64,000 bases of DNA, from positions 44,522,401 to 44,586,400 of the forward strand of contig CM120641.1 in NCBI GenBank assembly GCA_051362555.1. Reading direction: 5' to 3'. Within the stretch, counting starts at the first letter, position 1, and each line of letters starts with the position of its first letter. Origin of the DNA: Lingula anatina (taxonomy: Eukaryota > Animalia > Brachiopoda). A model generated the notes under the pieces. It was not told where the DNA came from and did no database searches. It worked only from the letters and a program-made list of their open reading frames with translations. The position numbers and the translations under genes were made by a program. Positions 6,669 through 43,600 of this stretch are shown here, one piece after another.

Positions 6669-6901
6669 GTATTTAACAACTATATTGTAGATCTTTTTAG
6701 GTGCATCAATATATATACTTCTATTGCTAACGTTATAATAACGCTCTGTAATACACGTCTTTGCGTGTGTGTGTGTGTGCGTTTGTTTTAGTACCTATAT
6801 CCGGTATCCGGCAAAGGACGCCACCGTTCCAGACTTAAAGAAAAAGAACTAAATAAAATCATGGTACTTTTGGACTTTAATTTGTGTGTTTGTGTTGGGT
6901 T

Positions 6902-6932
<31 letters not shown>

Positions 6933-11430: not shown

Positions 11431-13356
11431 GACGTTTTATTAGTATGTGTGTGTTTGTGTTTGTTTAAGGGGGAGGGAGGGGGAGGACATCGTTAGACTT
11501 GCTTTGAGTAATGTCTTTCTTAGGTAAGGCTTGTAAATACTTATCTATTCGGTTGTATGCTTTTTTTCTTCAACTGATAATCGTGCTTAATTATTTTTTC
11601 ATTTTATCAAAGAATATCTGCTTTATATTTATTTGACATTTGTCATATGAGCACTTTTTAACAAATCGTTTGTCAGTTAACGTAATAAAACACGGAATGA
11701 TAATTTTAATCAGGGCAATAAATAAGTGAATACAAGAATTTTCGGTACCTTTATTTTTTCAACGATGTGTTTGGATTTTTTCAATAGTTAACAAGAACCC
11801 TGTGAGGTTACCAAATGTTCCTTCATATCTTTTTCATTGCATTTTAGTTTACATTGCCCAGCATTAAAAATATATGTACATATGACAATAAATACAAGGT
11901 TCAAATGATCAAAATGAAGTTTTTCTTAAAAGCAAAATACATCATTCAATTTAGCAACTTTTATGCAACTAAGTAATACAAAAATAAATAAATAATGTCA
12001 AAATACAATGGGATAAATAATATAGCTAGAACATCCACTCACACTTTATGCAATCTTTATGTAATGGTTGCATTTCACTTTTTCGCACATCCTTCAACTC
12101 AGATATGTGGATTTGCTCTTTTTGCATGTAAGTTCAATTTTGTTATAATGATTAAATGCATTATCATAATCACATGCCTTTACAATTTCAATGTATTAGC
12201 TCTTTGGTGTTATTTGTGATGTATATACACGTGATTTTATTCAATAAAAAGATGCCCATCCATTCACAAGAAACGACAGTTCTAAACCAATTGCATGGGA
12301 CATGTAACACACGGTATGTCGAATTCTGGTTAATCGTTATTTTAAGGGATATGATCAGGAATGCCATACCACCTAGGGCTACACCCCCCGACCCCCGACC
12401 CCCTCAATGGACCCACAGATTGAGTTTTCACTAGATATTCACGGATATGTCAACACTCAGCTGACCTCATATGCTCCATAAAAGACTACCACCCAACCTA
12501 GCAAACCCTTTACAGAAGACTATACATGCATGTGCTGCCCTATGCAGTCCATGTTCGAACTATAAAATATCGAACCATTGGGCCATTAATTATTAGAAAT
12601 TCGAACGGGACAGTGAATCATCAAACACAATATGAAACTTTTGTATACAACACAACACCGACTTCGGTCCCATCACAATCGGTGTACACCTCCCTAATCC
12701 AATAAGCCTTCGTACTAGCGAGACGACCGAACTTCTCTGTTATGCCCCATTATTAGAACGTAGATCTAAGGCGCGACTATTATGTGATTAGTTTTTATTA
12801 CGTTCCTATTACAGAATAATTGTGGCTCGGGGTTACCAGGAACTTTAAAAACCTATTCAAAGGCTTTTAAAGACTTTTGCTGCTCTTTTTAAGGTTTTTT
12901 AAATGTAAATGTAATGCCATGTATAAGAGTAAATAAAAAAGAAAAAAAAGACTAGTAATATTTTACACAAATTTTGTATTTTAACACTTAGTTATTAAAA
13001 TAATAAAACCAAATGATGCCCTTATGGGTATTTTCCACTTCTGTAAATTATTTTCTACATTCAGGTTAAAAACAATAGGATTTAAAATATTTTTGACAAT
13101 TTGCTTAGTGATCAAATCAAACATTTTTCATTGACAAATACGACGGAATACAAGCCCTTTTCAGTGATTATAGAAATTTCAGGTACTTTTCAAGCTAGGG
13201 TCACAACATGGATTCAAGGAGAAAGCTTTAATTCAAGCACTTTTCAAGGCTGAATGAACTCGGTCTCTCTCACATAGTTCTCACGTGACCGTACCAAAAC
13301 ATTTACAGCTTGGAGATAAAACGATACAACCTGAACTACATGATAAGATTACAAGT

Positions 13357-19062: not shown

Positions 19063-20445
19063 TTAAATGAAATTGTTTTCTGCAGTTTGGGAGGAACTAT
19101 CTCTACGCAGACAGCAATTTGCAATATCGTGAATTAATGAACTAAGCCTTTTCCTAAACACGTAGGACCTCAGTGTATATATGTAAGGATTAGAGCATGT
19201 ATTAATAAATATAAATGAACATGCAAATACACTGATAATATACTGATTTATATCAAGACTTGACGATTGTGATTTGAATATTATATAAGTGATGAGAAAA
19301 GGCAACATACTTATTAAAAATATAGCCAATAAAATTAAACTAGAAAAAATAACTTGCTGGTCTTTCTGTATGATTTTTACGTAGTGCATGTCCGAACCCA
19401 TGTGCACCTCCATTACGTCGGTTGTTTCCTGTGCTATTATATCTATGGTGTCAGGGTTCTCGTTGCCTCTTGTCCATCGAACTTGAGCACTCATGTTGTT
19501 TTTTCTTTGGAAAAATTGCGATACATCTGTTTGCTGCGAGGTGGAACAAGATGGCACTCCTGGCAGTCCCTGGACGTCTCTGGCTGGAATGGCTTCTATT
19601 GCGGCTGGCGCATTTCCTGTAGATTTTGGTACATGAGCACAATGACTTTGTTGATCCTGTCGTGAGACACACTCTAAAGGAGTAAAAGTCGGAGAAAGTG
19701 ATTCGTCTGTGCTGTTGCCACCTTCCGCCATAAACGTGTTGGCGACATTTGCAGATACTGTATGTATGGAATGTCCAGTGTAATAAGGTTTTACCAACTT
19801 GCGTTGCTTTAAAATTTTTTTCACGACTGACAAGTAAGATAATATTGTTACTGTAACGCAGATCATCACAAATGTGTAGCCGATTTTAAATAAAACACCA
19901 GCAGGTTGTTTCCCGTCCTTCAAACATTGCAGGGGGATCACAAATTCACTGTTAGACTCGGAAACAAATGCAAAACATATGATGCCTAGAATCCAATGTG
20001 CAGTTAAACATATTTTGAAAATATGCCTTGGGATAGTCAGAGCAGGCTTGTGAAATTTTGCTGCTCGCAGGACACTTATGCTGGCCAAAATAACGATATT
20101 CATAAATGTCCCCAGGGCTAAAACACGCCCTACAGAGCAATTGATAGAAAGTGTTGATTCATCCCATGACCAAAGTGTCATAACGAATAACGGGCACCCA
20201 ACGAAGGACATGAACAGATCCACTAGTGCTAAGTTAATGTGGAATGAATTCCACCATGTTCTCAGAGACGGAGTACTTCTTGTGATGATAAGAACACAAA
20301 TGTTACCGAACGCTCCAAACACTGCCAATATAGCTGTAAATAAAGTCGCGGTGATGTGTGTCCATCTTGTTTCATCAAAAAATCCTGGCTGATTCCACAA
20401 GTTACTGTTTTCTGTTACGTTGTATTCACTGGATGAATTCATCAT
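19063..20445 (-). CDS. Intronless orphan class A (rhodopsin-like) GPCR, 460 aa
   Basis: Seven hydrophobic segments, N-terminal N-glycosylation sequons, TM1 GN, TM2 NLALVD, Cys at the top of TM3 and in ECL2, long ICL3, TM7 NPYIY, helix 8 FRKRL and a CC motif. Confidence 0.9.
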   Translation of the reverse strand: MMNSSSEYNVTENSNLWNQPGFFDETRWTHITATLFTAILAVFGAFGNICVLIITRSTPSLRTWWNSFHINLALVDLFMSFVGCPLFVMTLWSWDESTLSINCSVGRVLALGTFMNIVILASISVLRAAKFHKPALTIPRHIFKICLTAHWILGIICFAFVSESNSEFVIPLQCLKDGKQPAGVLFKIGYTFVMICVTVTILSYLSVVKKILKQRKLVKPYYTGHSIHTVSANVANTFMAEGGNSTDESLSPTFTPLECVSRQDQQSHCAHVPKSTGNAPAAIEAIPARDVQGLPGVPSCSTSQQTDVSQFFQRKNNMSAQVRWTRGNENPDTIDIIAQETTDVMEVHMGSDMHYVKIIQKDQQVIFSSLILLAIFLISMLPFLITYIIFKSQSSSLDINQYIISVFACSFIFINTCSNPYIYTLRSYVFRKRLSSLIHDIANCCLRRDSSSQTAENNFI

Positions 20446-21491
20446 TATGTATATTGGTAGTGGTATGTTTTGCCGTTTTATATACTGGTTTGGCTAAGAA
20501 GGAGGACGTCAGTCTAGCCCTGTGAAATACGGATCTCATTCGAAGATTTGTTATCCCTCTAATACGTTTATTGAGCACTAAATGATATGAATACATTTGC
20601 AGGCTCTCCAGACTACATTATTCACAACATATATAAGGATATATCACACATTTATATATGTTTTCATATGTAGTATGCAAAATTGCACATTTGTTAATGC
20701 ATGTTAAGCTATAAGATCAATTATGCTATTCACAGCATTATCATCAATTAGTGGCTGTGATGTACTAAATTGCAGGTGAACTACACACACTGGACAATAG
20801 AAGTGTCACCCCTACTGAACCAATACTTTTGGGGGGAGATAAATGACTGTGGAATGATATATTCCTGGTATCATTTTATTAACATCAAATTTCACAAAAA
20901 GACCAACAATACAATTCCATGGTACAGCTGTTTTATACTCATTGGTCACATTATATGTAGACCAGGCATTACAACTTTGATTATTCTGATTCAGGGGATG
21001 GCACTTATATTGTGCAGTGTGTGTATGTATTTTAACAGCAGTCTTTACAAATTCTGCTATTACTTTGAGACTTTTTTACAGGGTGGATTAAGGAGAATTG
21101 ACAATATCTGACCACTGTCCTCTAGACCCACTACATTGATTTTCAAGAGTTCATCATGCATTTGTTGCCTTTCAACATTGTATTTTGTACATTCCGCGAG
21201 GAAGTGTTTTCCATCCTCTATGCAGTTGCAAGCTTTACATTTTCTCGCATCAAATGGAGTTTAAGGTTATGTGTATCAGTGTAATAGGCTAGTGGCTTGG
21301 GATAAAGGCAATAGTCTTAACGACTGGATTCATTTCGGATTTAAATCTGGGGTTAGTACTGCTTTCTTTAACTTTGAAAAACACCTATGCGATTAAAATC
21401 TCGAAAGTTGGAGATTTTCCTGTCAATATCATCAGAAATAAGCATTCTAAGTTTGTCAGCAAAGGGTCAAGAAATCAATATGATAATTGAA

Positions 21492-21754: not shown

Positions 21755-22285
21755 TTGTAAAATCTTTCTTCTAATTGCCCATTATTACGCTTGGTAGTTT
21801 ACTTTATTATTTAATTGAAATTTATCTGCTTATCTCTGTATTTGATATTATTTGAGTACTTTTTTAACAAACCTACTGTCAGTTGACATAACACAGCACA
21901 AAATTATGATCTTTTTTTTTAATCACGAAGATGAATAAATTAAAAAAACCAAGACATTTTTAGTAGCTTTATTTATTCGTCATTGCGTTTTCACCTTTTT
22001 TTTCTATGGTTAACAGGAACCCTGTGAAGCTTAACAAATGTTTCTTAAACCCTTTCTACCGAGGTTAACATTGCCCAGCAGATAAAACAATGAAAATATG
22101 AAGATTCATACAAGTATTAAAAGATCAAAATAAAGCATTCAGTTTTCCTTATTAGCAAAGCATAAAATTCAATTACACAACTTTTGTGCTACTCTGTAAT
22201 ACAAAAAAAAAAAAAAAACAATGTCAAAATAATTTAGTAAAATAAAAAAGCTTACCCTACAGACCATGGCAAGAACACCAACTCA
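21755..22285 (+). repeat. Diverged paralogue of the IYD 3' flank (matches ~11560-12040 and, in part, ~7020-7340)
   Basis: Shared colinear blocks: atctgctt, tttttaacaaa, tgtcagtt, gttaaca.gaaccctgtga, caaatgtt, acattgcccagca, gatcaaaat, caactttt, gtaatacaaaaa, aatgtcaaaata. Confidence 0.82.
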
Positions 22286-23728
22286 CCACCCTGAGATTAA
22301 AAGTTTGAAAATTTCCACACACCCCCCATCTCTCTTTTTTTTAATAAAAATAACCAAAATAATAAATAAAACAAACTTTCAGGCAAATAGCCACTTCTGT
22401 ACATAAAAGGGGAAGTTTCAAGACCTTGACACCTGGGGTGATGAGCTCAGGTGGATGGCATTTGCTTGTTTTGAAGTCTTCCATGTTATATGACAAAATG
22501 CTGGCATGTTAATTCAACTACCCTGTAGGCTGTAGGCTACTTATCTAAATTGAAGATGAGTTATACAACAAATGATGATAAAAAGCAATGACTATACAGT
22601 ATTAAGATAAATATATAATATGTAAATATAAAAATGTTGATTTCCTTGGCATTAAGCTAAAACAGTATAAAACCATGCACTTTAAGTGTCTTTTACTGTA
22701 TCAAAACCCTGTTTTGATTAATTGTATAATACCTTTCTTAGGCTTGCGATGTTATATACTTTTACTCTGTTACATTTGTATTGCAATAAATTTAGTAAAG
22801 CAATTATAATATATTTTATCAAAATCAGTTTTGATTTAACTATGATATATGAAATATTAAAAGACTTAAGAATGAAAAATATGCTGTTGTTATAACATTA
22901 CATGACATGTATCAATACAATGTATTATGTTTTCAAGCACAAAAGAGTATTTTTTTTTTCAAATGCAACTTAATTTCAGTTCTTAAGACACAAAGAAGAC
23001 CATGCACTATCCTCTTTTATATTCACTACAAAAACATCACTATGACTCACATATTTGCAATGGTATGTACACTGATTTTCTTTTAAAATATATCATTTTA
23101 ACATATTATTATAAGTGACTAGATCCTACATAAGTAATGATTATTTACCCGATTGTCTGACTTAAAGATCTATTGCAATAAATATGGTCATGGAACCCAC
23201 AAAACCCAGCAGGGAAGACCACATGGAATTGATATCAATACCACAGAGAAAATAATTTTGTGACAAAACTGCACAAGAGTTGACCATGTTCAGGGCTGCC
23301 AACATTACAGTACTCAAAATGCGTAGTTCTATTGTTAAACATGTTATTAACAGTACAATAACACCTGAAAACAAAAGGAATTGATACTAAACAATGTGTA
23401 TAATACAGGGGAATATGCAGAGTTGGCAACCCTGTATTTTTGCACCTTGAAAGTTTGACTATTATATGCTGTGATTATGGTTTTTTCTATTTTTTAAGAA
23501 TTATATACAATTTTAGATATTTCAATACCATTAAAAAGCCATCTCATCAAAAATATTAGAACAGATATCAAATCAACCATTTTGCTTGTATTTTACTCCT
23601 GTTGTCAAGTGGACTTTTTCATATTGGTTTGCCCACTGGTTACTTGAAAGGCTTTAGGTATAACCCTGATCCAGTGTTTATCATCTCTCTTCAATTCTTG
23701 TTACCAAACACATTATGGCCAACATTGC

Positions 23729-26700
23729 TCTGAAAGGGAAAATAAAAAACCATCAATATTTCAAATATTTGTATACATGTATGTTTATATCTTATCTTTC
23801 TCTAAAAATTCACCCCCCCCCCCCAAAAAAAAAAAAAAAGGTGACTAATACTTCGCCAAAGGTGGCTGCTTTTCTCTAGGGTCCCCTATGACATCATTTT
23901 TTTATTTTATAGAACTTACTGACAAGAAAATAAAAATGGTTATCGAAATGGCTGATTACACCAGTCAAGGCTATGCCATGACCTCAATTGATAACCAGTT
24001 ACATGCTATCAAATGTTGTGAGGTTATAAGGGCAAAATTTGATAATTGTAGCAAAAGGTACAAGATCAAAAGAGTGTTTACTTGTTAAAATGCTCAATCT
24101 ACAGGTAATGGTTACTAATGGTTATCCAGTAACCTATTTTTTTTTTTAATCTATTTCTTTTGTATCTTTGAGTTTTCAAACATCCAATCTTGAAATATTG
24201 AGGTACACATATTTTCTGTCTTTTTCTTTATTTACCATGTATAAGATTTGTACTCCTCAATACACAAAATATATGATATCAAAACAATAGATGTCAGCAC
24301 TGTTCAACTGAACTCACCATTTTCCCAGAAGTGCCAGCAGCATTGTCTTGTACTCTCCTCCACAGTCGCCCTCTATACTCTGTGCCAAGCTGACTCCATA
24401 GAGTTCTGCATACTTTTGCTTTATCTCAGCCAGGTCAATCTATGTGAAAATGTTAGAGGGTGACAATTTAAGTCTGTGGCAAAAAAAAAAAAAAATAAAA
24501 AAAAAAAAAAAATAATAAATCAGTCTTGGAGACACCTGGGTCTAAGAATCTACTAGCCATACCAGGAACAGTAGTCATAAACTGAGAAAAAATTACAATA
24601 TTTAACTTAACAGCATAAGGTTATGAAATCTATGTGAAAAAGAACATTTTTTGAGGTGGAAAATTTTTACCTTACATAAATTGTAACTCTTACAAATAAA
24701 TTGTGTACAAATATGAATATACATGCAATTGTGAATGACTCAGTTTCTGCTATTTTTATCATTGAAAGTATGAAAGGTTTAAGCACAATTTACCTCTGAT
24801 CTGGAGACTATAATTCTGATCAGCATTTTATCATTGGTCCCAGCGCTATCTGTCAAAGCTGAATGCAAACGTTCGGCATAGAACTGTATGGGGTCACTCA
24901 GTGCACAAGCTGTAAAACAAACAAAAAACAAGAGCTTAAAAAAGTTAAACAAAATAATGAACAAACATACAGATAAGTTCAAAACTGAAAAGGCATCCAA
25001 ACATAAAAAATAAATATACAAATAAAAATATTGAAAATACTAGCATTTACCACAATTTAAATTTTAATAGCTCAATAATTATGCATTTCATTTAGAAAAA
25101 AAACATGAAAATGTAGCTTTTTCAAATGCAGGGCTCACCTAACGCAATGTAGCCTTCCTCAGCATCCCCCACCATTGCTTTTTTAATACCCTCTGTTATG
25201 TCATGGCCTGCTAGCTTCTTGTAGGCAGCAAAGGTGGCCCGAACCTGAGCACGACTTCTCTTGGTCAAAACATTCCTGAAGTTGGCATCTGACAGATCAA
25301 GTGTGGACTCTGCTTCCTGTTGTAAAACAACATGATAACTATTAAATGTGGATTCTTGCATAGGATATCCAAGCCTGCTTGAGATTTCTTCTACCCCCCC
25401 CCCCCCCCCCCCCCAATCTTCAAGCTATGAGCTTAGCATTTTTGTAATGTTATTTTCATTTGGGTTTTTGATTTCAAAGATTCAGTAAGATATTAAGTTT
25501 TAATTATGCCTAACAAAATAAAATTCCCATCAACCCATGTCTCACAAATTTATGCAATTGTAGCATAGAGAGTGCATTCCATCTGTTGGATAATCTAAAT
25601 CTTGATACCAATTGACTATTTTCCAGCAAATATAAAATGTTCCCCATGGATAACCACATAGTTTCTATATCATATCTACAGGCTCATACATGATCTGTAC
25701 CTTGTAAAGTAATGCTGCATCCTTCTCTGCCTGTGTCTGGTCAACTTTATTGCTCTGATCTCTCTCAGCCTCCAACAGTTCAAGCAGCAGTGTCTGGAAG
25801 CCTCCACTTGTGTCATCTGCTATGACAGAACTCAGCTCTTTGCCATAAGCTGAAAGGGAAACAACTGTGAAATGAGCTCTGTGTCTATCTATATTCATCG
25901 TATTTTTTCTAAGTCATCATATTTTCTCTAAGACTGGTTTATTATGAAGCGTAAATGTGAGAATTAAGCTCTTCCTATACTACCTGTATGACAAGTATAA
26001 TAAAGGTGAATAAACAAAATTCTGATGCAGGATTGTTATTGAGGAGTTTTATTTAAAATTATCACATCTAATACATGAAATGTGAAGAGGTATCATGAGC
26101 CCTTGTTTAGGTGTCTCTGCAAATCTTCAGAAAGCCAACCCTCTCAAAAGATTGCCTTCATTCCTTACCTTTCTTGTACTGTGCCTTGATAGCATGTAAT
26201 TGTTTGGGACTCCTAGTGGCCAGGATACCTATCAGAACAGCTTCCCTGGTCCCCAGCCCCTCCACCGCATCATGAAGACAGAAAGCGTCAAACTCTGTGG
26301 GTGTCTGTAGACAAGCCTGGACAACTTCCTCAAGATCTCCCGTCAACTCCCAGTTTAGTTCTTCAATCAAATTCTAAAAAAAAGAAATTTATAACAATAT
26401 AGCTTTCCCTTTTTATTTATCATAACATTTTTGAAGATGTCAGCCATTAGTCTGAAACAACAGATTATAGATTTGGTGTCAGATTATAAGAAAAGTTGAA
26501 ATTTCTCAGATACAAGTCTGATCAGGAATAGTGATTAATTTCCTGGTTGTACAAGATTATTTTGCCATCGTCCTCCACCTAGTAAATGTCAAATTTGACT
26601 TGTCTAGTAATTTCCTGAGGCATGCTAATCCCACAGTTTTTCCAGTGCTTACCTTCTTATATTTCTCTTGATATTTTTTCCTAATTTGCTGCCTTTGTTC

Positions 26701-29700
26701 ATTGCTCCTGGATGACAGGATGTCTATTAATGGTTTCTCATCTGTTCCAAATCCCACCACAGCCTCTCTTATCGCCTCCACATCTCTCAACACATCAAAA
26801 TTTTCATATGGATGAACAGTACCACGGTGATCAGACCCAGCCTTAGAATTGGGAGAACCAGACTGACTTTTCTTGTCTTTGTGACCCTTATCCACATGTT
26901 CCTTTTTGCTTTTGCTGTGGTCTTTTGTAGTTTTACCATGAGGAGGGTTACCCTTGATGCTGGACTCCTTTTTGTGATCTGCAACACGTTTAGAGTGTGG
27001 GATCTTTTTCTGGGGTACTGCTGCTGTGGCGACCATGGCAAATTTTCTGAATTTGGCAAGTGCAGCCTAATGGACAGAAAAAACGTTTCAAGACCCTTAG
27101 CAATCACATGTATGCTTCCAAATCCACTTATATAGTTATATAAATATGATTTACTTCTATAATAAATGTTAAAATTTACTATAACATCTTCAACTTTTAA
27201 CAGATTATTAAAATAAACACACCGTGTCCACCTATTAATATTGAAAATTGAATATAGCAAGTGAAATTGCAAAGATGTAGAGGAAGATGGATAAGACAAC
27301 AAGTTTAAATATAACACAAATTAATGGAGAAATAAGTTAGCACACATAAACAGTGCATGTTAATAATCACTATCTACCTTTCCGTGAGGTGTCAGGCGAG
27401 TTGCGAGCTCCAGTAAAAGTTTGACTGCCTCTCCCTTACAGCGGTACTTAATGTCATCTACCAACTCCACACTGTACTTCTTTTTGTACAGTTTACGAAT
27501 AGCAGGCATGTCAACCTGGACAAAAATAAAGTGATATGTATTCAGATTAAAGTTCCATCAGTGTTTACCAATCAATCATAACTAACATTTTTTTCTCAAT
27601 TTATAACATAAGCTTAGTGCATTTAAATATTTATAGAAGTTCTAACAAGGCTAATTAAAAAAAAATTTTCTTTCAATTTATTCAACACACCATGCAGCCA
27701 GAAAATGATTTTCAATATCATCAATAAATCATCATTGGTGTTTATAATTTTGTTTTCATTTTTTAATCAAAATATTTTTATGCGTTTATAATTTAATGGA
27801 AATTATGATTATTCCAATTTTTCAAAGAATTTTTTAAAAAATTATGCATGCAGTACATATTTCACAAGAACTTCTGACCAGTCTTTTAATTTCTAGCTTC
27901 TTATCAAAAAAAGTAGCACACGTCACAATCATACTTCTTGTCGGTAAAGTATTTTCACTTACAAGCAAACAATTTCAGAGAAGTAAATTGTCAATTACTC
28001 ACATCAGCCCTGTCCAAGAGCATTCTAATAAATTCTGGATCTTTGTGACTCATCTGATCATGTAGTCTTTCAACATAAAAGGCATGAGGTGTTCTCAGGA
28101 GAGTGGCTGGAATATAACATGGCACATATAAGAGAGAGAGAGAGAGAGTAGAGAGCGAGAGAGAGCGAGAGAGATTCACTTTCTGAAAGAAAAAATCTCC
28201 AGTTTTCTCTTTTATAAACTATCTTCAAATTTTAAATGAAATTACACTCTTAAAAATTCAATTCATTAGATCAAATTATAGCTATAAATCAGTGAACCTT
28301 ACAGTGTACTAATAATACATGATATGATTTTACAGATGAACAACTCATATCACAAGTTTCATTATTATACTGCTAAGCTTACCCAGTGTTTTCACAGCAG
28401 TGGTGAAGTCTGTGTCTCCACAATCACTGGCCACAGTATCAGTAAGGTCCTTCTCCCCTGTCACCTGTATAAACACACGGGAATGGTCAGGGACAGCATG
28501 AACTAAAAGCACTGCCAATATTACAGTACTCAGAATGTGTAGATCTATTGCTATTTGAGGTAAGATTTAAAGATTAAAAATCACAAGTTTCCTTTTTATA
28601 AATTGTAATATTTAGCAAGATTTCTTACATTTTTGTAGGCATGCAGTGTGGCCCGTATCTGGTGCAGACTTCTCTCTCCCAGTAACTTCATGAACTTGCC
28701 ATTGTCGTTCAGCCAGCGACCATCACCAGACTAAAGAAAAATATAGAATAAAAATATAAAATGTTAAGGAAAAAAAAGGTTATCCTTTCACTTCCACCCA
28801 TCTCCTGTGTCTACATATATAACATATCTGTGGTAGGGATTGGGTAAAAGTTTTCAAGGTGAAGTTGAGGTGACAAAGAATATGGAAAATCAAATCAAAA
28901 AGATGAAGACCAAGAAAAAGTATCAGGAGAGAGAGGAAACATTGCAAAAAATAAAATGTGAAAATTTCTCCTGTGGTATTAATTTATAATTCTGATCAAA
29001 GTGAAGAAAATATAAATTGTGAGATCATTTCATTTCAAATGTGAATGGTGCCATTTTTCCACAGAAAGCACAATAAGCTATACGCAACACACAGCCATAC
29101 ACAAACATCACTAAAGATCTAACACTTTTATTCTAGTACATGTATGTGAACTAAATATGTTCACCACACAGTGACATAATACAAGGCGTACCTTAAGTCT
29201 GGACACATAGATAAAATGCATATTTTAAATACAAAAATCTCATCCTTATCTAATTAAGATATTAATAAATAAACTATAGCATGGCTATTCCTATGTGTCC
29301 AGATTTTAAAGACCCTGAGTATAAATATATATCTATAAGAGCAAAAACCACACATATCCTACCTGCTGGTCTGCTGACATCTCAATATAGGAGGCAGTGT
29401 TCTCACCAAAACTTACAACAGTCAACTGAAAATACAGTTTTACATACAGCACTGACTATGTAGCAATAACAACATCTACAGCAACAACAACAGCCACAAT
29501 TATAAAGATCCTGACAACAATGCAATGTCACAAAAAGGATCCATAAAGCAATCATGCCATATCAAAAACAACAAATAAACAAAAAGACAAACAAACAAAC
29601 ACCAATGCTTAGGCATTTCAGAATTAATCAATGAATGAAGAAGGCAATATGCAATCAGCAAAAAGTTAAATTTTTGAAATTCAAGCAAAAATCTCAGGTA

Positions 29701-32700
29701 CAGGTGCTATCTATTTTGATACCTATTCTACTATTAATATTCCTAACACACTAACAAAAATAGCCTAAAAAAATACACAAAAATTAAAATGAATCATTTT
29801 GCAACTTTTCTCTTTTAAACAGATCATAATGTAAATATTACGCTTAGTAACAAGTGATAAAATATAAGCTAGACTGATTTACTTCCCCATACTGACAATG
29901 TGTAATCACTGCTTTTTCTATTTCATATCTGTGACTTAATCATGGTAAATCTTAAGCATGCTCAATACCAATGCTAGGAAATAAAGTAATGTTTTCTTTA
30001 ATTACTTCCAAATACAACCTAGACATACGCATTAATTATCATACGTCAGAAGTCATAATTCATGATTTAGCGTCTTGAAGTCTTTGACAATATCCACTGA
30101 AAGACATGCCATAATTCTAGACAGCAAGCACATGCACCTAGACAAGGCAAGATGTGTTACAAACTCTCTAAGTCTGTTTTCTGCCCATTACATATATACT
30201 ACATGCAAAACTACAGTTGTGTTTACCTCGTGCAGTTCATTTGCATCGTTAAGAGCCAAATCATCATCAACAGCTTCAGATTCATTGCGCCCCTCCTAAA
30301 GAGAAAAAATTAATTTCACAAACTGTATGGTTTATAGAATGAAAGAAATAAAAAATAGATAAAATGGATATAAAATTTTTTAAATAATTCACTAAACATA
30401 TTTTAAGGTGGCAAACAATTACCATAAAATCGTTGAGAGAATCAACAGAAATTTGTTTTTTTTTTGGTTATCATTATTTTCAACACATTGTCTGTTAATT
30501 TTTGTGTAGATTGTGACCTTATACTTATCACTTACTTTTGATAGAGTAAGTAAAAACAGCTGAACATGTTTATCAAAGGAGTCCTTGATGTCCTCCTCCA
30601 CTGTCTTGTCATATTCTGGAAGCATGAATAAAATGTTAATCAACTTCTACCACATTTGTTTTTTGCTTGTTTTATAATTTTCTTGAATAGAACACTAAAA
30701 CAAATCATAACATGAAACAAAAAGCACTGCCAAGTGAAGTTAAAATAAAAATAACAAGGTTAAAATGTCAGCTTCCTTGTTCACAAGAAAAAAATTACGA
30801 AAACGTAAAAGCATTACCATGAAAACATTTCCAGAGTCAAGTAATAGCAAAAATTACAGCAAGTATAATATTTCTGTCTTCTTTAGTTCCAGAGCACACT
30901 TACTTTTCCTATATGTTTCTCTCAAAGCACTCAGTTCTGCATTACTTCTCATTACCATCATCTCGACAACACCTCCAACATCTTTGGTCTGTTAAGAAAA
31001 ATGAAAAAAAAAAAGAAATATAATACTGTAGGCATACATTTGGCATACAATTTTAGACCTATACTCTACAGTTGATGACATCTGTACATACAACTCTAAA
31101 AACCCTGTGAATAGCCATTTTCCCCTATTAAAATGGTAAAAACATCAACTTACTGCAATTCGTTTGTTCAGGGTTTCAGCATCTGCAGCATCCTGTTCAG
31201 TGAGTAAGACATCAATCATGAGATAATATGCACTGCCCATCAGAGCCTTCAGCTCACCCTCAAGATCCTTGAAAGAAAATACACAATACTTCAACAGAGG
31301 TACTGAAACTTTGCTGCTTTACTGCTACTCTTAAAGCTTACTTACTTATCTTCAGACAAAGTACATGTAATCAATCAGAAGTCCTGCTGATATTAACTGT
31401 ACTAAATTGGGACAAACCAGCTCTAAAGGAAACAGGCCTTATTTCTTTCAACTTTACACATACAAAGTAACCCAGGCTCTAGCTCTCTAAGGAATAAGAA
31501 GTTGTTAAACTTAACAGAAAATCTTAAAATCTGATCTCTAAATTCACTTACCAATTCATAGTTGGCTCTAAATTTATTTTTCACAATATTTCTATGTCCA
31601 CAGGTTCTCCTCAACATTGTCTTTATCATTACTTCATCACCATTTTCTGAAGAAAATCAAAGAACACTTAAATGAGGAAAATTTGAAAAATGGTTGACCA
31701 CAGTGTAAGAAGAAAGAAAATGGCAGAACAGAAACTTATGGAGAGATGAAATGAAGGGCTGAAGATCAAAATAGATGGCGTGGGAGACCCTAAACCTGCC
31801 TCATGGCAGACAAACAAGACACAGAGAGTCAAATATGTATTACACTTGTATTTAATAATTCTTTTATTTAATTATTCTACAATAATTTCAGAAAGTTTCT
31901 GGAAAGTACTTACCAAGACCTTTAATGGCCCTGAATAAAAGTTTTGCATCTTCTTCAACAGGAGAATCAACCTACAAGACATCAAAAAGAAGTTTTACTA
32001 CATGTAAAAAACTTTTAAAATGGAAGCTTGCTGAGACTGTCCAAACTCCTTCAGAAATTCAATTTCCAATACAGAGTGCACACTCTCATACTGTGTTACA
32101 AATGAATTCATTTTTTAATGTCACTTTCAATCTTTATATAATTTTTAGTACTACCAACCTGTGCCCCTTTCTGTTGATAATCATATGCAAAAATATTTTT
32201 CACTCACAAAATGCTCATTCAAATAAACTGAAGTGCAATCAACTGTGTTTTAGCACTTCATTTGCATTCTTTAAACACACCTTTTCCTTTGCTTCCCCAG
32301 TCAACCTTGGCAATTTTGGCACTGATGATTCTTTTAGAGAGTCTTGCTTTGAATGTGTCCTTCTTGAAGTAGCTCTCTGGTCATAAAAGAGGAGTGAAGA
32401 AATATATAAATACATCTTTTTTTATCCTTTTACTGGATTTAAAATGGAGATGACCTTGCAGCCTCATCACTAGCACTACTACATGCACTCTATTCATCTA
32501 TGACCAACAGATGTCATCATGATGAAGATACAATGACTTTTTTGGAAATCCAATGAAAGAATTTTTAGAAAATCATACCAAATATATAATATAGAAAATT
32601 TAAAAATGAAAATACATTAAAGTAATTCTACCTTATATTACAGAAAAACAAGATGAAACAATGTTATATATTGGAATACCAAAATAATATTGTACATATG

Positions 32701-35700
32701 TTACAAGACAAAAAAGATGTTTCTTACCGATGATGGAAAGTCAGATCCTGCTACTGATTCCTCCTCCTTAAAAAAAAAATGAAAATTTTACATATATTTA
32801 AACTGGTGAAGTCCAGATAAAAAAAGGGACGATAAAGGCATTTGTTTAGGCAGTCACTAACCCTTTATCCATCTCTCTTTAGGAACCCAGTAAATCTTGA
32901 ATATCTACAATGTAACAGAATAAGCCCAGTCAGAGATCCAACACTTACTAGACTTCTTCGTGGACTCTTCCTTGGGGTAAGTCCTGGAGCATAGTCCTTA
33001 GTGGTATGATTGATCATACCCAAGAGGTAGTTGTGCTTTTTGTCTTCTTCCTCCTACAACAGAGATCTTTATTCAGTTTTTCTATAACAGTTTAAGTGGT
33101 AAAGTTGACATAATCTTACTACCAAAAAATTGAAGTTTTAATTTTGTCTTCAATACAGCAACATTTTTAATCATCAAATACTTTTAGTATGATATTTTTT
33201 CTTTTGCTTTTCTTAATGACATCCATCACAAAAAGCTGCTCCTCATTTAGACTTATTAATCTAATGCATATTTTGCTACAACAAGTAAAGCAAAGTGTAA
33301 GGCGCTGCAACTCACCCATTTTGCAATTTTGTACACTGGTTTCACTTCATTCAGGCTCTTGGCTATTCTAATATTTTCATTGGCTATCTTCTGTTGTTCT
33401 CTATCTCGCATTCCTCGGTTTAAGCTTTAATATAAAAAATAAAATAAGATTATTCTTGGCAGATCTAAGTATTTGTCATGAACTATGGTCCCACAAGCAC
33501 AAGTAGGGAGGCACACATAATTATTGACAACAGACATTTTTAAATGCTTACAAGTTTATTATCATTAAAAGAGATAAATTAGTGAAAGAAGATATCTCCT
33601 ATCATAAATATTGTATATTTTGAAAAAATAGTTTTAACCTTGCTGTTTTAAAAAAACAATGTAAATACTGATGCACAGCCATACTTTTTAATAGAACTAT
33701 TTTTTAAGAACCAAATAAATAAATTACAAATCTACTTGCAAAACTGATGCTAAAGATTTTCTTTCTTTTAATCAAAATTTCCCACAACTGAAATGGAACA
33801 TGCCATACTTCAAAAAAAGACCCATTTGCCCTTCCTATTAAGTGTGATAAATTACATGGCCCCACAGAAGGTTTTGAAATTAAATAATGGGTGTTGGAGA
33901 TTGACATAACACATGTAAATAGCGTAGTGCACAGTAGGTTTTCCTTCCATGTCTTGTAAGGTCATTTAGCTGTGGTACTTACTGCAATATTTTATCCCTG
34001 CAGCATTCAAGAATAAGCAAAGTACTAGAGACACCATAAGGCAATGAAATTATGTGATGTGCACTAATACAAAGTAAGAGTGTATGTCACATAAGTGTTG
34101 TTTCTGACTTACAACATGACGAATATTGATAACAAAAGAACTAGATAGTGTACCTGACATTTATACATGCCATGCATGTAATATATCTGGATTTTTTCTG
34201 GACAAAAAGTTTTCCAGTTATGCTTTTAATAAATACAAAATAACTTTCTTCTATATATTTTTAAGTAGTGTAAACTGCTAATTTTCCACTCTTATTATCA
34301 TTAATCTAAAGTTTCTGATACTGAATAATATGTTATGTCGTTAATAGACACTTTGAGATGCTAAACATTCAAGTTAGTGTAAAACAAACAAACAAACAAA
34401 CAAACAAATAAATAAATAAATAAATAAATGAATAAATTAAAATTGTTTAAACATTTTTCAGCTCACCTCTTGGACTCGTAATCGTTCCAATTATCCAGGC
34501 GCCCCCTACTGGTCATAATCCAGGACATTTTCTGGAGAAGGAGTTCATTATCGTTGTCTATCTTCGCCTGGCGATCTTCTTCGAGCTGTGTTAAAACAAT
34601 ACTTCAAAGTATATCATCAACAGGAATAACTGTGTGAAAATTCCTGACAATACTTATTAATGGACTCCTGTGCAGTATCAGATGTCACTCTATCTGACTA
34701 TTAGAAAGAATTGATTCTTTTCATTGTGTCCTGCAAATCACATTTATCCTTTCTTGATGTGTTTTATTCCATAATCAATATACCATGTACCGCCTACAAC
34801 ATGAACAAAAAATGCAACTCATGATTACTTAAGGGCTTTTATCTGTCAGATACAAATTTTGAGAACTATATATGATAAATAATGTAAGTTTTTAGTCTGT
34901 ACCTGTACTTTCTTTAGTCTGAGGGTCAGGTGAGGTTGTTTCTTTGGAGGAGTGGTATCAAGACCAGATTTCATAGAATGCATCTGGAATGAAAAAATTG
35001 CAGTGTGATATAAGTGCAAAAAAGATATCAGTTTTGGCTGAATAAAAGCAAAATTCAAAATATTCAGTATTGCATGTATAAGTTAATGAAAAATATTACC
35101 AGACAGTCAATAGAGATAATATACATTCATTATTTTTGAAATTCTCATCTGGAATTACAATGTCTGTAAACAGCATCCATTACATGGTAATAATCTATGA
35201 CATTGCCACGGTAAGTCAGATATATACAGATTCAATCAAAGGTGTGTACATGTATTTGAAAAAGTATGTTTATTTTTTTTCTGACAAGCACCATTCATAT
35301 ATCCTTCAATAGACTCCTTTGGTTATGTTATCTTGTAACCTCAAAAAGTGTTTAAAAAACCTTATAATATAAATAATTTCTGATATACCCCCCTTCCTGT
35401 CATGTTGAAGATATTGTATTTCTTACACAGACAGCAGAGCTTTATGCCATGTTATGAATTTACTCATATAAATTACTGAAACTTGATCTTTTCAATGGGG
35501 GAAAAAATTGCGAATTTCTTAAAATTAGAACATTCTTATTGAGTGGTAATTAAAAAAAATTAAAAATTAAAAAAATTAATAAATAAAGAAAAACAGTTAC
35601 TCTACTGTTCTATTCTATGTAGTAAAAGAACCACAAATGATATATAGAAAGAGAATTTTGTGATTATCAAATTATGTATCTGAAAGTTTGATCATTTTTC

Positions 35701-37411
35701 CCCCATTGAAAAGATGTAATTACTGTAAGAAAATTAATATAGTCAGCACTTGTGACTGCGCATACTACCACAGTGCACTGAATACTTTTATTACACCAAT
35801 AATCCCCAATTCATTAACTGCTGCACAGAAACAAGAGTCTTTCCATCTTTAAGCATGAGAAACTCTACATCAGCCTTTCCTGTACAGCACAACACTGAAG
35901 TGCCATCTGATACGGATTAGTGCCGATCGATCAATAGGAAACTTCCTTTTTTTATTCAGGAAATGTATATACTTATATGATTTATGTAGTTTAATAATAC
36001 ATTTTTGATGTTTTAGAAAACAAAGATCTAAAAGGGAAGCAATGAGGATTCAACATTAAGCATTTCTGGCATAGCTTCACTGTTTTTCTATAGCCTAAAC
36101 TATAAACTGACGCCTTATTTTTTCAACCACCTAATTTCACCGCTATGAAAATGCCAGATTATAAATGAACAACATGTAGCCTAATATTAATATTCTAATA
36201 AGTACATGTGAATTTTTCACTTTACTGGACATGGTAATGTGACCTTATGTACAAGTTTAAGCTGTGAAGTTCAGACAATTGCCCCTTGTGCTGTTTGACC
36301 TACAAATATAGGTCCCTATTAAGTCGATTAATTCAATAAAACAGTCTGCTATTTAAATTGGTGATTTTTCACTTACAGAGGTTTCTATTGAAAAGTTGGA
36401 CATTTGCAAACTTGAAATGTCTACAAATTTCTATTTGACCCCAGATTCAATACATGGCACTTTATTAGACTTGTTCGTTTGATTTGTGCAATAGCTAACA
36501 GCTTGTGCTTGGGTAGGCAAGGGCTGAGCAAACCTAGCACACAAGCACTTGAATGTGCTAAAATCCCTGATCAAACCCTTCTTCCACTCATAATCATGTC
36601 CTCAAAATGAATTTAAAATGGGTTTCAACACACCTTTGAAGGCTTTATTATGCAATTAAGTTCATTGCTTTGGGAAGTTAACAGATTAAACCACAAATTG
36701 ATATGACTGAAATACAAATAAACCTGTCAATCAAAGAAGGATTTTTAAAATGAGTTCTGAATAGCTACATACATATGTGCTAGCTTATAAGACTTTTACC
36801 TATCAAAGAAAATATATATACCAAACATATTGCATGCAACAAGGGCTTTTACCCGAGTTGCTTTAAGCAAAATATTTACTGCATATCTGCATTCATCTCA
36901 CTATGGTAGCAAAGAGGCAGGTATACTTCCATGGCCACAGATTGATTTTATTTCATTAGATATTCACAGACATGTCCCTAGTTAAATGATGGAACTTTTC
37001 TGCACTCACATTAGTAAAAAAATCCCAAAATAATCTGTGATCCTAGTAGAATGTACATGGACACAGAGGTTGACAGTACTGAAAATTTCATTTCACATAC
37101 TTAATTAATATGAATACATTTTAATATAGTGTGATTTTTTCATGTGGTAGGCCTTTCTTAGAAAGTCCCTGAAGAATTTTAAAAGCACTGAGGACTCACT
37201 GTTCATTTGACTTTTGTGTTTTCTGTCCTCCCCCTTTTTCTTGTGTTGTTGGCAGATGCATATTTAAAAGTTACCCAAGTGCATTAATTAAACATACCTT
37301 GTCCATGTGACTTTTGTACTTTCTGTCCTCCCATTTTTTCTGTAGTAGTTTGCTAGGAACGGCAAAACCAGGCCCTTGCCGTGGCATGGCGAGACCTGAC
37401 GTCAGCGGCAT
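23729..37411 (-). CDS. CFAP97/KIAA1430-domain plus eight-repeat (double-core) annexin fusion protein, ~924 aa, 24 exons
   Basis: Exons: 37411-37298, 34983-34903, 34585-34467, 33424-33316, 33053-32949, 32766-32728, 32376-32281, 31971-31914, 31646-31552, 31267-31154, 30988-30904, 30615-30536, 30295-30227, 28730-28629, 28464-28383, 28106-28003, 27515-27378, 27066-26653, 26373-26169, 25849-25701, 25316-25139, 24909-24794, 24439-24318, 23729. All GT-AG and phase-compatible, 2775 nt, no internal stop. N-terminus KLLQKKWEDRKYKSH...DTTPPKKQPHLTLRLKKVQLEEDRQAKIDNDNELLLQKMSWIM...SLNRGMRDREQQKIANEN matches the CFAP97D-type pattern. Annexin motifs include GFGTDE, GLGTRE, DTSG and IVSRSEIDL. Confidence 0.82.
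35486..35715. repeat. 21-bp perfect inverted repeat enclosing ~190 bp (possible MITE)
   Basis: atcttttcaatgggggaaaaa ... tttttcccccattgaaaagat. Confidence 0.6.
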
Positions 37412-37935
37412 CAGAACTGAAGACTTTACTATTCCTCCCAGCAGCCACCTGTAAGGAGAATTAGGGATGTTAACATTTACATGTGTGTTTTACCTATATT
37501 TAACTAAAAAGCACACAGTCTCTCTCTCTCTCTCTGCATATGTATGTGAGGGTGAACAGGCATGTGACTTTGTGTAATACATGATGCATTTTACATCAAA
37601 ATAGAGCATTTTTTATTGTTTTGCTGATTACAATATAAAAATTTTAATTCAACCACATGATACATTATCTTATTTATTTATGACAGCTTTTCCAATACCC
37701 CTCATCAAATGAAACATTAAGTGCAATAAATGAGTGAAATAAAAAGCATCTCTAGATAACATTCAGTACGTTTAAATAGAACCTTTATTAAGTACTAAAG
37801 ATCTTTAAAAAAGTGTAGACAGAAAGGCAGCAAAGCTCCATAAAATTATTCAGACAAAGCACGAAATCTCCAATCTGATTTTAACATTCCAGGTACATTA
37901 CAGTGTAATCAACAAAGTAAGCTACTAGTATTCCC

Positions 37936-37949
37936 ATCACCATGGCAAC
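37936..37949. promoter_or_regulatory. Candidate RFX X-box
   Basis: ATCACCATGGCAAC vs consensus GTTRCCATGGYAAC (2 mismatches), ~0.5 kb upstream of the first coding exon of the CFAP97-annexin gene. Confidence 0.45.
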
Positions 37950-40662
37950 AAGGCCTTCGCTTCATTACCACTACCTTTCTCCCAGACTTGGGGTAGAGAG
38001 GCGGGGAATGAAGGGTAAATGACACCCTGACTTTGTGACAATATATTTCAACTAAAAAAATCCTAATACATCAAATCTAAAAATTTCAGTTTAAACTCGT
38101 ATTTCTTTAAGTGATAATTGAACATCAACTTATATTTTAAAATCTATTTGGATTTTAAATTTCTGAACATTACCATATGGTGATTTTGATAAAATTCTCC
38201 TATTCACTGAAATCAAACTGAAATTCCAAAAGTGAATGTATCAACCCCTCACCTCCCTCACCATCATGACACAGAATCGTGTTGAGTAATCTCATAAGCT
38301 TCAGAATGTCACATTACTCTGATTAATGAAAACAGTTTGTGACTTAATGGTGGATACCACACTGGCTCCATATCCAATAACCCATCACATTTTTCAATTA
38401 CACACAGTATTCACGGTCACAAATATCAAATTTGGCATGAATCTGGGGCTGCTTTCACAAAGAAAGTTAAGACCAAAATTTAGCTCTTCCTCAATTCAGG
38501 ATAAACCAACAAAGCAAACACATTCTATTTTAACATTGTAAACTGTAGTTAAACATTATTAATGGGGATATTTTTGTATGATATTATGCATACCATTATT
38601 TAAGCACTTGTGAATAAAGTAGCTACATCATTTGACAGGACAGTGTACATAAAAAATTCAACATCCTCATGAAAAAAGTGGAAAACTAATAAATCTGTTG
38701 ACTGGGTCAAACAAAATTCTCATGCAACAAAAAGGCAATATTTGTAACAATAGTCTATAATATGCAATACTAATTATTGCCCACTTCGTTATATATACTT
38801 GTATTTTGTATTTCTTTGATATTTCAAAATGAAGAAAGAACAAACATGTTAATTTTGAAAAAATATATACACTTCCTTTTGGAAAAAAGTGTTTTGTTTG
38901 ATATTGCATTGAATTTAAAATATAATGTTAACAAAATCTAGCAATTTAATAGAAGAAAAAAAAAAGATACAACTGAAAAATGTTCTTTTGTGTATTTGTG
39001 AATAGCCTACAATATGCATTGGCCCAATAAGTAAAACTTGACAAAACAGACACCAAATGAATGTCAAATGAACCTTAATTAGGCTTACCATGATCCTCTA
39101 ATTATTTTCAGTTGCAATTAGATTAATTGGCTTTCGATTATGTCAATTTTATCTCTTTAAATAGGCCTCTGGCCATAAATCACAAGTGACAATAATTTAC
39201 GATACATCATGATAATATGTGCGATAGCAACAAATGATTATAGGTATATAAATAAAATTAATTGGCTACAATTAAAGTTTCTAGGAACTTTCTAAAAAGT
39301 AAATGCGCATACCATTACTTAACGTCTGAAACGCCCCAAAAGTCCAAAAACTTACCAGTTAAATTTTTTGTTAAATCCAAAGAACGGTAATGGACAGAGC
39401 TGACCGTTTCCTGCTATGCTATAGCTTAATACTGATACAGTTTACTTTATTCAGGCATTTGAATAGCCACCGGCTTGTTAAAATAATATTTGACTGCCTA
39501 GTTACCGACCACGCACATGTTTACGAAGTACCAAACTAGACCCAACTTGACCAATACATTAATTTTGTGCAAGAAAAGTTAGCTTACCAGCCTTTTAGCT
39601 GCCTTTTGAACTTAGGTATCCGCTCATTATCGCAATTACGGTAGGCAACGACGAACAAAGTTTTCTATTGATCTTGGATAACTTTTCCCTAAACACTGAC
39701 GTCAGATATATCTAAAATAAGGAATGTAATAAAATTTAAATGAATTTACTTTATAATATGTTGATCGAGGTATGTATTTATTATGTTTTTTTGCCAAAAA
39801 TATTTTTTGATGACAGCAAATCTGAATTTAATGTTTGTTTTAATTTTTTCATTTGTGCGGTGCTGGTACCATCTTACGGTGAATTCTTTAATTTGCCATA
39901 GAAACTCTTCTGCTTTAAAAGAGCCAAAAGGTACCCCCTGCTGTCTGCTAAACAAATCACATCCAGAAATTATGCTTAATTTCCAGGACCACGTCATCAT
40001 ACAACAGTATTGAATTTTGAAGTCAGTTCTCCCATCTTCTTTTGGTCGTATAACATCCAGGTGAGGTTAAAGTTAAGCAAAAACAGCGTTAAAATCACAC
40101 GACTCTTAGGTGACCTCATTTTTTGCATGCGTGACCTCGATATCTTTTGAAGCGTGTGCCGCTTTCTTATCACTCTCTCAAATCAAATATGCAAGTCACC
40201 TGTCACAAGTGGCTGAAATTGCAGCGATGAAGCGGCTGATTAGGATTTCTTAGAGCGCTTTCAACACTTATAATTGTTCTTAAGTAGAGATGCTTCTTTA
40301 AATGGATGTAAACGTGTATAGCAGGAGAAAGGATCGGGATTCGGAGGAGGAAGACGACCTGGACACAGTAAGCGGAACAGTATTTTATGATAAATAATAG
40401 TATAACCAAACAGTTCTACTAATGTATTTTTCTTTAACGACGTAGGCAAGTGCTGTTTGACATGCCACAAGAGAGATCGGTCACCTAAAACATCGGAGTA
40501 ATTCCAATGTATGTACTAAGTGTACAGACTGCAGTACAGTGTACTGTACTGTGCACGCAAGGGCCTGCCGTCACCAGTTTCGACAATGAGAATACTAGTA
40601 TGCGCAAAACCAATGACATAATTTGATTTTATTTAATACATTTTCAGAGGACCAGTGAGAGA

Positions 40663-43600
40663 ATGAAGTCCCGATCTTTCCTGCCTCGTTATGTAAGTAT
40701 TCAGGTAGTTCATATTTATTTATCATTCTTTGCTTTCGGCTTCATATCATGCCAGACATTCCAATATTACAGTGTAAGGGTAGTACATGTACATTGCTGA
40801 GAGCCATGTGCTATACCAATATAATAAAAATATTTCACAGTAGCTTGCCCTACAGCTATCCTAGCTCCCATCTGTATGACCTACATGCATACACCCAGAG
40901 CAGATTTTGAGTCCTGATATCACACCAGAAATCATATCAGTCCATAAAAATTTTGTGTTAAATATGTCACCAAAAATCGCAATACCTACATGTAAATAAT
41001 TTACTTAAAAACATGCTATGGCTTATGTAATTATCTGTGAATTAGTGCATGGTTGTTATAAGCACATCTATGGGGTATTCAAGTACTTACTGTCATGGCT
41101 AATGACCTCTTCTTTTGAAGATACAGACTCTTTGACTAAGAAATTATGTATCTTTTTTCTAGTGAGGCGGCCCAAATTGGCCCTCAGGTCTAAAATCTAG
41201 TAAAAAAAAAATGTCAATTTTATTGAATGCTGAGGCCAATGAAGCTGTTGGATAAATTGTAAGCTTTTTCAAAAAAGGGAAATATTATTTCATGCTCCAA
41301 AGATATATATGCACTTTTGCCTAAGAAATGTCAGTGAAAAATCTTAAGTTAATTCAACAACTTACTACTAGCAAAAGCTTTTCACATTTATTTGCGGAAT
41401 GACTCATTTATCAGAGCTGATCTATATACAGATAAAATACTTATCTTGGTATGTTTCATAATTTTTTTTTTTTTCGGTTACAATTTTGATCAAAGAGTAA
41501 AAATTATTGTCAAAAAAAAAAGCATTCTTGGTGAAAAATAATCCTTGCCTATTCATGTTCACTGTACATAATCTGTTAAAGTACTTGACATTTATAACAG
41601 ACTGGTGTTAATGCCAAAAACACTTAAAGAATACTTAAAAGTCATAAAGATTTCAATTAATGTCAATTCTAGTAATTTATGAAAAATTCTTGGCATAAAT
41701 GTCTTGAGGATAAACTGTTTACTTCTCATAAAGTTTCACTTAACAAATTCCTTTGACGTTAATACAGATACTATACACTATGTGTATCTCATTAAATTCA
41801 GTTAACTTTATTTTTCAAGCATATTTTTGTAAAGGGAGGCAGTACATGCTGAAAAATCAAAACTCAGGATGAGTTTAGATAAAAGGGATAACTACAGATT
41901 TTCATTTTCAGTTTTTTATGTATGCATTTATGATAGTTATCTTTTATTGTAGAGTGCAGATGTTCTCCACCGTCTACAAAGCAAGGGTAAAGGTGGCAAC
42001 ACTATGCTGTACATGGTGGCAGGGATATTTGCCTTTGGGATATTCCTCACAGTGGTCAACATATATGAGCTGAGGAAAGTTCAGGTAGACAGTGGCCCTG
42101 GAGAGAAGAGTGGCAGGAGAAAGCAGCATGTGGTCTGTGTATGGGGGAAGAATGTAAGTAGGAGTATTTTCATCAGATACTGTGATTGGAATTGTGGTGT
42201 TTGGTCTGCATTTGGAGTGGGGGCAGGAGGGGAGCTCAGGTGGGATTGTTGTTATAGTGTCAGCCTGGGGGAAGGGGATGACCTGGGTTTGGCTCTGTCC
42301 AAGATATTGTTCCTATGGTGTAGAGGGGAGTAAAGATTATGGTAGTGCTGGTTATTGAGAATGGTGCCACTTAAATGTATGCCAGTAATAGGTTGTATGC
42401 ACATCAGGGAGGTTAATCATATCTGGAACCTTATATTCAGAGCCTTAGAGACTAAGTATAAATTCTAAACCAGACAAAAATTATTTATTGAGAATATAAC
42501 ATCAACCTTTTCCTGTCATCCTCACATACTGTTTTATTTTCTCTTGTATGGTTTTTCTTTAGCTCCGACCATTGACAGTAAAGGTTAGGAATAGTTGTCA
42601 AGATATACACATCTTTTTAAAAAAATTATGTGTGGACATACAGTGCCTGTTCAATAGATGGTTACTATGACATTGCTCTATGTGGAAAGAGCAACACTGT
42701 CAGAGTAACCATCTATCAACAGACAATATTAGAGGTTCAGAAAGGTTTTGTTATATGTTATTTTTAGATATTCATCAACTCCTTATTGACATACATTAAT
42801 TGACATTTATATAATTGAATTTTTAATTTGATAACAGAATATCATTTTACAATTAAATAATTGATATGGCATTGCTTTTATCATTTTGTTTATTTATTCA
42901 CCAAGTGTTTAAAAAGTTTGATTTTTAGAAATTTGATGTTAACGTTTTGAATTAGTTTTTACTCAGCTTAAATTTGAATTAATCTGACGTCTGTCATGAA
43001 GCTCTGCCAATGGAAGTGAATCAAGATTTGAAGTAGAAATGTTATCAGTTGTGGAACACAAGATGAAATGATATTTATAAGTTTTGATTTGATATCTTGA
43101 CAGAATATTTGATTATTAGATATTATATGCTTGAAAAGTATTTAGCATTGTCATACACCTAAAAACATAATGCAAATTTCTTAAAATCTTTGGTCCAAGT
43201 AACTGAAAGTAATTGACCTTTATTATTTTATTAAGGAATAAATGAATCATGCATATTCTAGAATAAGAACAAAAGGAAAAATCTGTTGTTAGTTAGGGCT
43301 CTTTTACAGCATGATATGTCTAGAGAATTTCAGCTGAGTTTGCTTTTCATTTTTGTAAATGGTGTAGGTTTATATGCACAATTATCTGATTAGTATTTTT
43401 ATTCTTTCAGCAAAAGACTGGCTACTTAAAGCATGTGTACAATGTGTTTGAACGCATCGGTTACTCCATAGGAACAGACAGAAATGTCTGGGATGTGCTC
43501 TGGTCACATGACTATCCTTTTAAAGAATTTGAATCCCAAATCAAGAATCTCCAGCCACACCAGAAGGTATAAAATAAATTTTATGTTATGTTTTTAAAGC

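Follow-up and report, generated by a model that had tools for sequence, protein, structure and literature searches.

A CFAP97 domain joined to two annexin cores in Lingula anatina: a candidate calcium-dependent link between ciliary doublets and membrane

We analysed a stretch of 64,000 nucleotides (nt) from the brachiopod Lingula anatina (contig CM120641.1, positions 44,522,401 to 44,586,400; below, the window). A gene on its minus strand, 37411..23729, encodes a CFAP97/Hemingway (KIAA1430) domain followed by two annexin cores. The fusion is real, the two parts being carried by one spliced mRNA. The gene, its strand, end coordinates and domain order are those of the initial annotation, which was made from the letters alone. 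We propose that the protein is a doublet-anchored, calcium-switched membrane tether, and give this reading a probability of about 0.5.

The RNA evidence consists of raw reads from seven of nine runs, belonging to three studies. Runs X1, X4, X7 and X2 were mapped on 22000-39500 (15 of 26 joints listed), and X2, X3, X5 and X8 on 28300-33400. Where the libraries are stranded, almost every first mate on the exons maps to the plus strand, as expected for a minus-strand RNA. The last exon of the CFAP97 side is connected with the first annexin exon across the fusion intron 32281/31971: this joint has 9, 14, 0 and 4 reads in X2, X3, X5 and X8, respectively, and four further variant reads in X8. In X2 its depth (9) is similar to that of its neighbours, for which the medians are 5.5 (upstream) and 6 (downstream). 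No start codon heads the first annexin exon. A CFAP97-only transcript ending within the fusion intron was considered and ruled out by the middle of that intron (bin 32062-32232), where the depth is 0 in X2, X3, X5 and X8. Thus the single frame initially predicted across the fusion is borne out by reads, and neither transcripts ending before 31971 nor separate CFAP97 and annexin mRNAs appeared among them.

The initial 24-exon model gave a single open frame of 924 amino acids (aa), all its introns being bounded by AG/GT. It missed exon 29425-29363 (63 nt, in frame); the corrected model, for a protein of 945 aa, runs from ATG to stop in 25 exons. This exon, number 14, is joined to its neighbours by 30227/29425 (6, 15, 0 and 3 reads in X2, X3, X5 and X8) and 29363/28730 (26, 45, 0 and 1 reads); no joint skipping it is among those listed. 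It encodes a 21-aa insert in repeat 3 of the first annexin core, absent from the six aligned non-Lingula species. Deep reads at 28730/29363 suggested an internal transcript start here; this was ruled out by the use of the upstream joint 30227/29425, by zero depth above 29496, and by joint depth that is uneven along the whole gene without a step. In the corrected model, 21 of 24 introns have read joints, and the two other junctions singled out in the initial annotation are also spliced: 32949/32766 (3, 4, 7 and 0 reads in X2, X3, X5 and X8) and 27378/27066 (9, 2, 6 and 5 reads in X1, X4, X7 and X2). Intron 28383/28106 has loose-end support (3+8+7 reads), intron 26653/26373 has a single row of 2 reads, and intron 31154/30988, which adjoins a skipped poly-T repeat, is absent from the listed joints. 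The last intron (24318/23729) interrupts the stop codon, so that exon 25 gives only its final base, the rest of the exon being almost wholly 3' untranslated region (UTR). The reads continuing down to 22000 presumably all belong to this transcript. At the other end, an untranslated upstream exon ends near 39588, with a donor GT at 39587. It was placed by four loose-end reads at 37443 in X7, which match 39583-39602 with 3 mismatches in 20; the read depth in bin 38936-39500 is low.

The N-terminal assignment is confirmed by the Pfam hidden Markov model PF13879 (Hmw_CFAP97), which matches aa 35-129 at 68.2 bits against a cut-off of 25.6 and over model positions 1-99 of 100, as scored on a Lingula RefSeq record (P0002). 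Exons 3 and 4 of the window gene match the same model on their own, at E 4.3e-5 and 0.016. Homology to CFAP97 extends to about aa 146-155, and Met9 (37387) aligns with the start positions of orthologues. The domain is predicted to be helical. Five of the six PDB matches listed are CFAP97-family chains with E from 1e-27 to 7e-11 (8snb_4T, 9v10, 8otz, 9e2g, 9e78), the best being 8snb_4T (aa 19-146, E 1.1e-27); the remaining one, a ribosomal protein, scores E 0.55. We take the structures 8snb, 9v10, 8otz, 9e2g and 9e78 to be cryo-electron microscopy structures of doublet microtubules from sea urchin, mammalian sperm and trypanosomatids. The Lingula domain resembles CFAP97D1, CFAP97D2 and the sea-urchin chain 8SNB_4T in type, N-terminal position and predicted helicity. 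However, the solved homologues are 158-231 aa long and have no annexin, whereas in Lingula about 720 aa of annexin cores and linker follow the domain. It is separated from the cores by a Ser/Pro/Lys/Arg-rich spacer of low model confidence (aa 161-226, 66 aa). CFAP97D1 is counted among the external microtubule-associated proteins of the doublet (PMC11779644, PMC13406575), and it associates with TSSK6 and EFCAB3, of which TSSK6 is external to the seam (PMC13066092). Loss of CFAP97 family members disrupts axonemes in mouse and fly (PMC7444823, PMC10425847, PMC3982993).

All eight annexin repeats of the initial annotation, four per core, are recovered by Pfam. The second core matches solved annexins at E 2e-77. 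The first gives an end-to-end profile alignment with solved cores at E about 1e-46, and its structure model compares with annexin structures at a template-modelling (TM) score by target of 0.7-0.77. Both halves are complete annexin cores, the first having kept the fold. In the model of the full protein (predicted TM score 0.38) the cores are confident and the linkers are not, and thus the arrangement of the domains is not predicted. The Lys/His/Ser-rich linker between the cores (aa 546-631), also of low confidence, is about 86 aa long rather than the approximately 75 aa first given.

Calcium sites were judged by the type II motif, G-X-G-T-D-38X-D/E (PMC4863580), in first cores from seven species and second cores from five. 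The calcium binding initially ascribed to the annexin half would be canonical in the second core, which has one to three strict GxG[TS] loops in 5/5 species; the first core has none in 7/7. In the window protein, repeats 5 and 6 have a GxGT loop with an acidic cap, repeat 8 has a near-canonical loop with a cap, and repeat 7 has neither. In repeat 3 of the first core the acidic cap is present in 6/7 species and the aromatic loop residue is kept, so that one non-canonical calcium site is possible there.

All five introns of the second core recur in the first at the same alignment column and in the same phase, which indicates that an annexin gene already carrying introns was duplicated in tandem to give the two cores. 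In a tree of 15 rows, where the outside annexins were one fish ANXA6 and one other, the first cores cluster together (100/100), as do the second cores (98/98); the duplication and the fusion thus predate the split of these phyla. Neither core groups with a half of annexin A6 in the best tree. However, such groupings were not rejected in approximately unbiased tests against the one fish ANXA6 (p 0.26 and 0.085), and an origin independent of ANXA6 is therefore not established. Vertebrate annexin A6 is the best PDB match by sequence and fold, and it likewise has eight repeats in two linked cores. On the other hand, A6 has a short head, and the fish sequence has GxG[TS] loops in both cores and no CFAP97 domain, whereas the Lingula protein lacks the first-core loops and has a longer, low-confidence linker and a head of 226 aa with the CFAP97 domain. 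As it lacks two features of A6, the protein should not be filed as ANXA6: it belongs to the CFAP97-domain family and, through its second core, to the annexins.

The 945-aa model is identical at 934 of 945 positions to the L. anatina protein XP_013394581 (945 aa; 11 differences). A search with one window exon led to a L. anatina RefSeq protein bearing both PF13879 and PF00191, with XP_013394581 in its cluster. The same domain order is predicted in the annelids Lamellibrachia, Ridgeia, Capitella and Owenia and the molluscs Gigantopelta and Ylistrum; these are gene predictions, the transcript evidence being that of the window gene. These records come from three word-based searches, in which 7, 105 and 7995 scored candidates yielded 1, 4 and 10 matches. 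All four matches of the second search are fusions (Lamellibrachia, Ridgeia and Capitella among them), and the ten of the third comprise seven fusions (including Owenia, Gigantopelta and Ylistrum) and three plain annexins. In the ESM Atlas, which is uninformative for clusters under 50 members, only ordinary annexin clusters were matched. Among five full-length proteins, the CFAP97 part is the best-conserved region (mean pairwise identity 50%); the first and second cores reach 37% and 47%, and the linkers 25-28%. Of 319 columns in the first core, 36 are invariant. The second linker varies from 61 to 90 aa.

The fusion thus already stands in public databases, under the names "uncharacterized", "annexin A6-like" or "A13". 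No description was found in the literature searched, mostly open-access text without supplements; a mention in a domain-architecture table or a supplement to a ciliary proteome is possible. In the accessible text of PMC3795353 the words "fusion", "octad" and "eight" do not occur. What is new here is the loop-free first core in 7/7 species, the loop-bearing second core and the five shared intron positions.

Two Lingula RefSeq loci, LOC106170869 (P0001) and LOC106162028 (P0002), are about 97% alike and are probably uncollapsed haplotypes; P0001 has a differing start of exon 4 and an aberrant C-terminus. In Ylistrum (P0008) the first spacer is 747 aa long and contains about a dozen 13-residue tandem repeats at about aa 500-700; this expansion could be real or an error of prediction.

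From the domain content we infer the rest of the tether as follows. The CFAP97 helices would dock on the outer face of the ciliary doublet, as the sea-urchin, mammalian and trypanosomatid homologues do. We take the A-tubule seam to be close to the outer junction, facing the membrane. Outward reach would come from two flexible linkers, one of 66 aa (at most about 24 nm when extended) and one of 86 aa (at most about 31 nm). The first core would be a calcium-independent spacer or a scaffold for binding partners, and the second would grip acidic ciliary lipids during calcium transients, so that the tether holds or reseals the membrane on the beating axoneme. There is a precedent in diplomonads, whose annexins, with calcium, bind to lipids and are located around the outer doublets (PMC4863580). 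The predicted properties of the Lingula protein resemble those of alpha-14 giardin of Giardia and annexin 3 of Spironucleus in binding to acidic lipids (calcium-dependent for annexin 3) and in association with tubulin or outer doublets (PMC4863580); these belong to a different, diplomonad lineage, and no CFAP97 domain is reported for them in the accessible text of that source. The Lingula protein would thus work like the diplomonad flagellar annexins, by means of a fused dedicated anchor. In Nematostella, the apical organ is enriched for annexin and for KIAA1430, as separate genes (PMC4300403); this hints, weakly, that the two functions come together in cilia. More tentatively, at somewhat less than even odds, we suggest a linker family common to lophotrochozoans. 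In it the CFAP97 domain would anchor each protein to a particular site on the doublet's outer face, a pseudo-annexin core, catalytically "dead", would serve as spacer or scaffold, and the live core would clamp the membrane only on calcium entry; its eight repeats would represent a second independent origin of such annexins.

A calcium-regulated tether between doublet and membrane had been proposed in the initial annotation. Its doublet side is strengthened by homologues of the domain that are built into doublets and by the external position of CFAP97D1; its calcium side is reduced to the second core, and the X-box that was thought to fit ciliary expression lends no support. The X-box-like 14-mer has 3 mismatches to the consensus, and three such sites occur in the 64 kb against 2.45 expected, that is, at chance level. 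Several further observations weigh against the tether. The partners of CFAP97D1 in mammalian sperm are a kinase and an EF-hand protein, not a membrane (PMC13066092). The first core is without a GxG[TS] loop in every one of the seven species. Run X5, with 20 reads overall, has 2-7 reads on three joints of the CFAP97 side and 0 on the fusion joint. The records of Ridgeia and Capitella end before a complete second core (that of Capitella is marked partial), and thus the calcium-binding half is unseen in two of seven species. Finally, the first spacer ranges from 38 to 747 aa in orthologues, which suits a strut of fixed length poorly.

One alternative, which we consider rather unlikely, is an axonemal calcium sensor that does not tether the membrane. 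The annexin cores would be set beside dynein arms or a kinase and would tune beat or arrest, as a covalent counterpart of the CFAP97D1-EFCAB3-TSSK6 module of mammalian sperm. In that module a CFAP97 domain lies beside an EF-hand-type protein on the outer side of the doublet, grouped there with a kinase (PMC13066092); its members are separate proteins, with an EF-hand in place of an annexin, a kinase present and no membrane-binding part. Further, the first core is conserved in those 36 columns without calcium loops, as a protein-binding surface would be. However, type II annexin sites are defined as calcium-and-phospholipid sites (PMC3795353), and long variable linkers suit reach better than a fixed place beside a motor.

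It is unlikely, too, that the CFAP97 domain merely parks a stored factor whose cores act briefly on wounds, at deciliation or in the release of vesicles. Annexins function in membrane repair, the anatomy expected is the same as for the tether, and the variable length of the linkers would not matter. On the other hand, nothing positive separates this possibility from the tether, and it leaves the retention of a first core free of calcium loops unexplained.

Quite improbable is a role outside cilia, with the CFAP97 domain co-opted for cytoplasmic microtubules and the protein linking vesicles to them, for example in secretory or mineralising tissue. The reads come from all seven runs examined, in three studies, and in mouse the expression of Cfap97 and Cfap97d2 spans several tissues (PMC7444823), which would agree with such a role. 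However, all five significant structural homologues are CFAP97-family chains in axonemal structures, and the domain, strongly conserved here, is tied to ciliated species (PMC3982993).

An artefact, in which two adjacent genes were merged by prediction or rare read-through, would agree with the missing fusion-joint read in X5 and with a transcript spanned by no long read, but it is already largely refuted, and hardly to be reckoned with, given a fusion joint of normal depth in three of four runs, the empty middle bin of the fusion intron, the first annexin exon without a start codon at its head, and the identical fusion in six other species from two other phyla.

Outside the transition zone, little is settled about the way in which the membrane is kept on the beating axoneme or about the action of ciliary calcium on this attachment. 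A single polypeptide combining a structurally proven class of doublet-surface anchor with a class of membrane-binding domain is a direct candidate for the link between axoneme and membrane. As it is conserved in annelids and molluscs, it can be tested in trochophore larvae, gills and sperm. If the linker family is confirmed, it would give the microtubule-membrane bridges along the shaft of the cilium an identified molecule that is open to genetic tests. For the evolution of annexins, it adds a conserved core without canonical calcium loops and a family that has been misnamed.

The features of the gene are collected in Table 1.

Table 1. Features of the CFAP97-annexin gene and its upstream region (window coordinates)
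Feature	Position	Strand	Remarks
5' untranslated exon	39588..39700 (upper end approximate)	-	loose-end reads, low depth
X-box-like 14-mer	37936..37949	.	inside 5' UTR intron, chance level
Coding exons 1-4, CFAP97/Hemingway (KIAA1430) domain	37411-37298, 34983-34903, 34585-34467, 33424-33316	-	
Exons 5-7, end of CFAP97 helix and spacer	33053-32949, 32766-32728, 32376-32281	-	
Fusion intron, phase 0, 309 nt	31972..32280	-	spliced reads
Exons 8-18, first annexin core (aa 227-545)	27378..31971	-	four repeats
Inter-core linker, Lys/His/Ser-rich (aa 552-631 of linker 546-631)	26827..27066	-	
Exon 19 (3' part) to exon 24, second annexin core (aa 632-945)	24318..26826	-	
Exon 25, last base of stop codon and 3' UTR	22000..23729	-	reads to at least 22000, edge of mapped stretch

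At 35513-35720, inside coding intron 1, X1, X4, X7 and X2 all show plus-strand RNA reads rich in loose ends. They probably derive from a transcribed repeat located elsewhere.

Several other genes were observed in the window. Upstream of the CFAP97-annexin gene, an exon with a hydrophobic segment and no Pfam match (41953-42330, plus strand) belongs to a gene pointing away from it, whose promoter may be a G+C-richer stretch near 40100-40700. The next gene downstream is a single open frame of 476 codons (19066-20493, minus strand) matching rhodopsin-family G-protein-coupled receptors. The region 4061-15572 on the plus strand looks like a tandem gene triplication: it contains near-identical first exons at 4061-4618, 8134-8670 and 13258-13842 and matching downstream exons at 10756-11139 and 15198-15572. 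Three of the five open reading frames there match the nitroreductase family PF00881, and we take the triplicated gene to be iodotyrosine deiodinase-like. At the other end of the window, a gene for an EHD-family ATPase (53536-58536, minus strand) is followed by a divergent yippee-like gene (59588-59983, plus strand).

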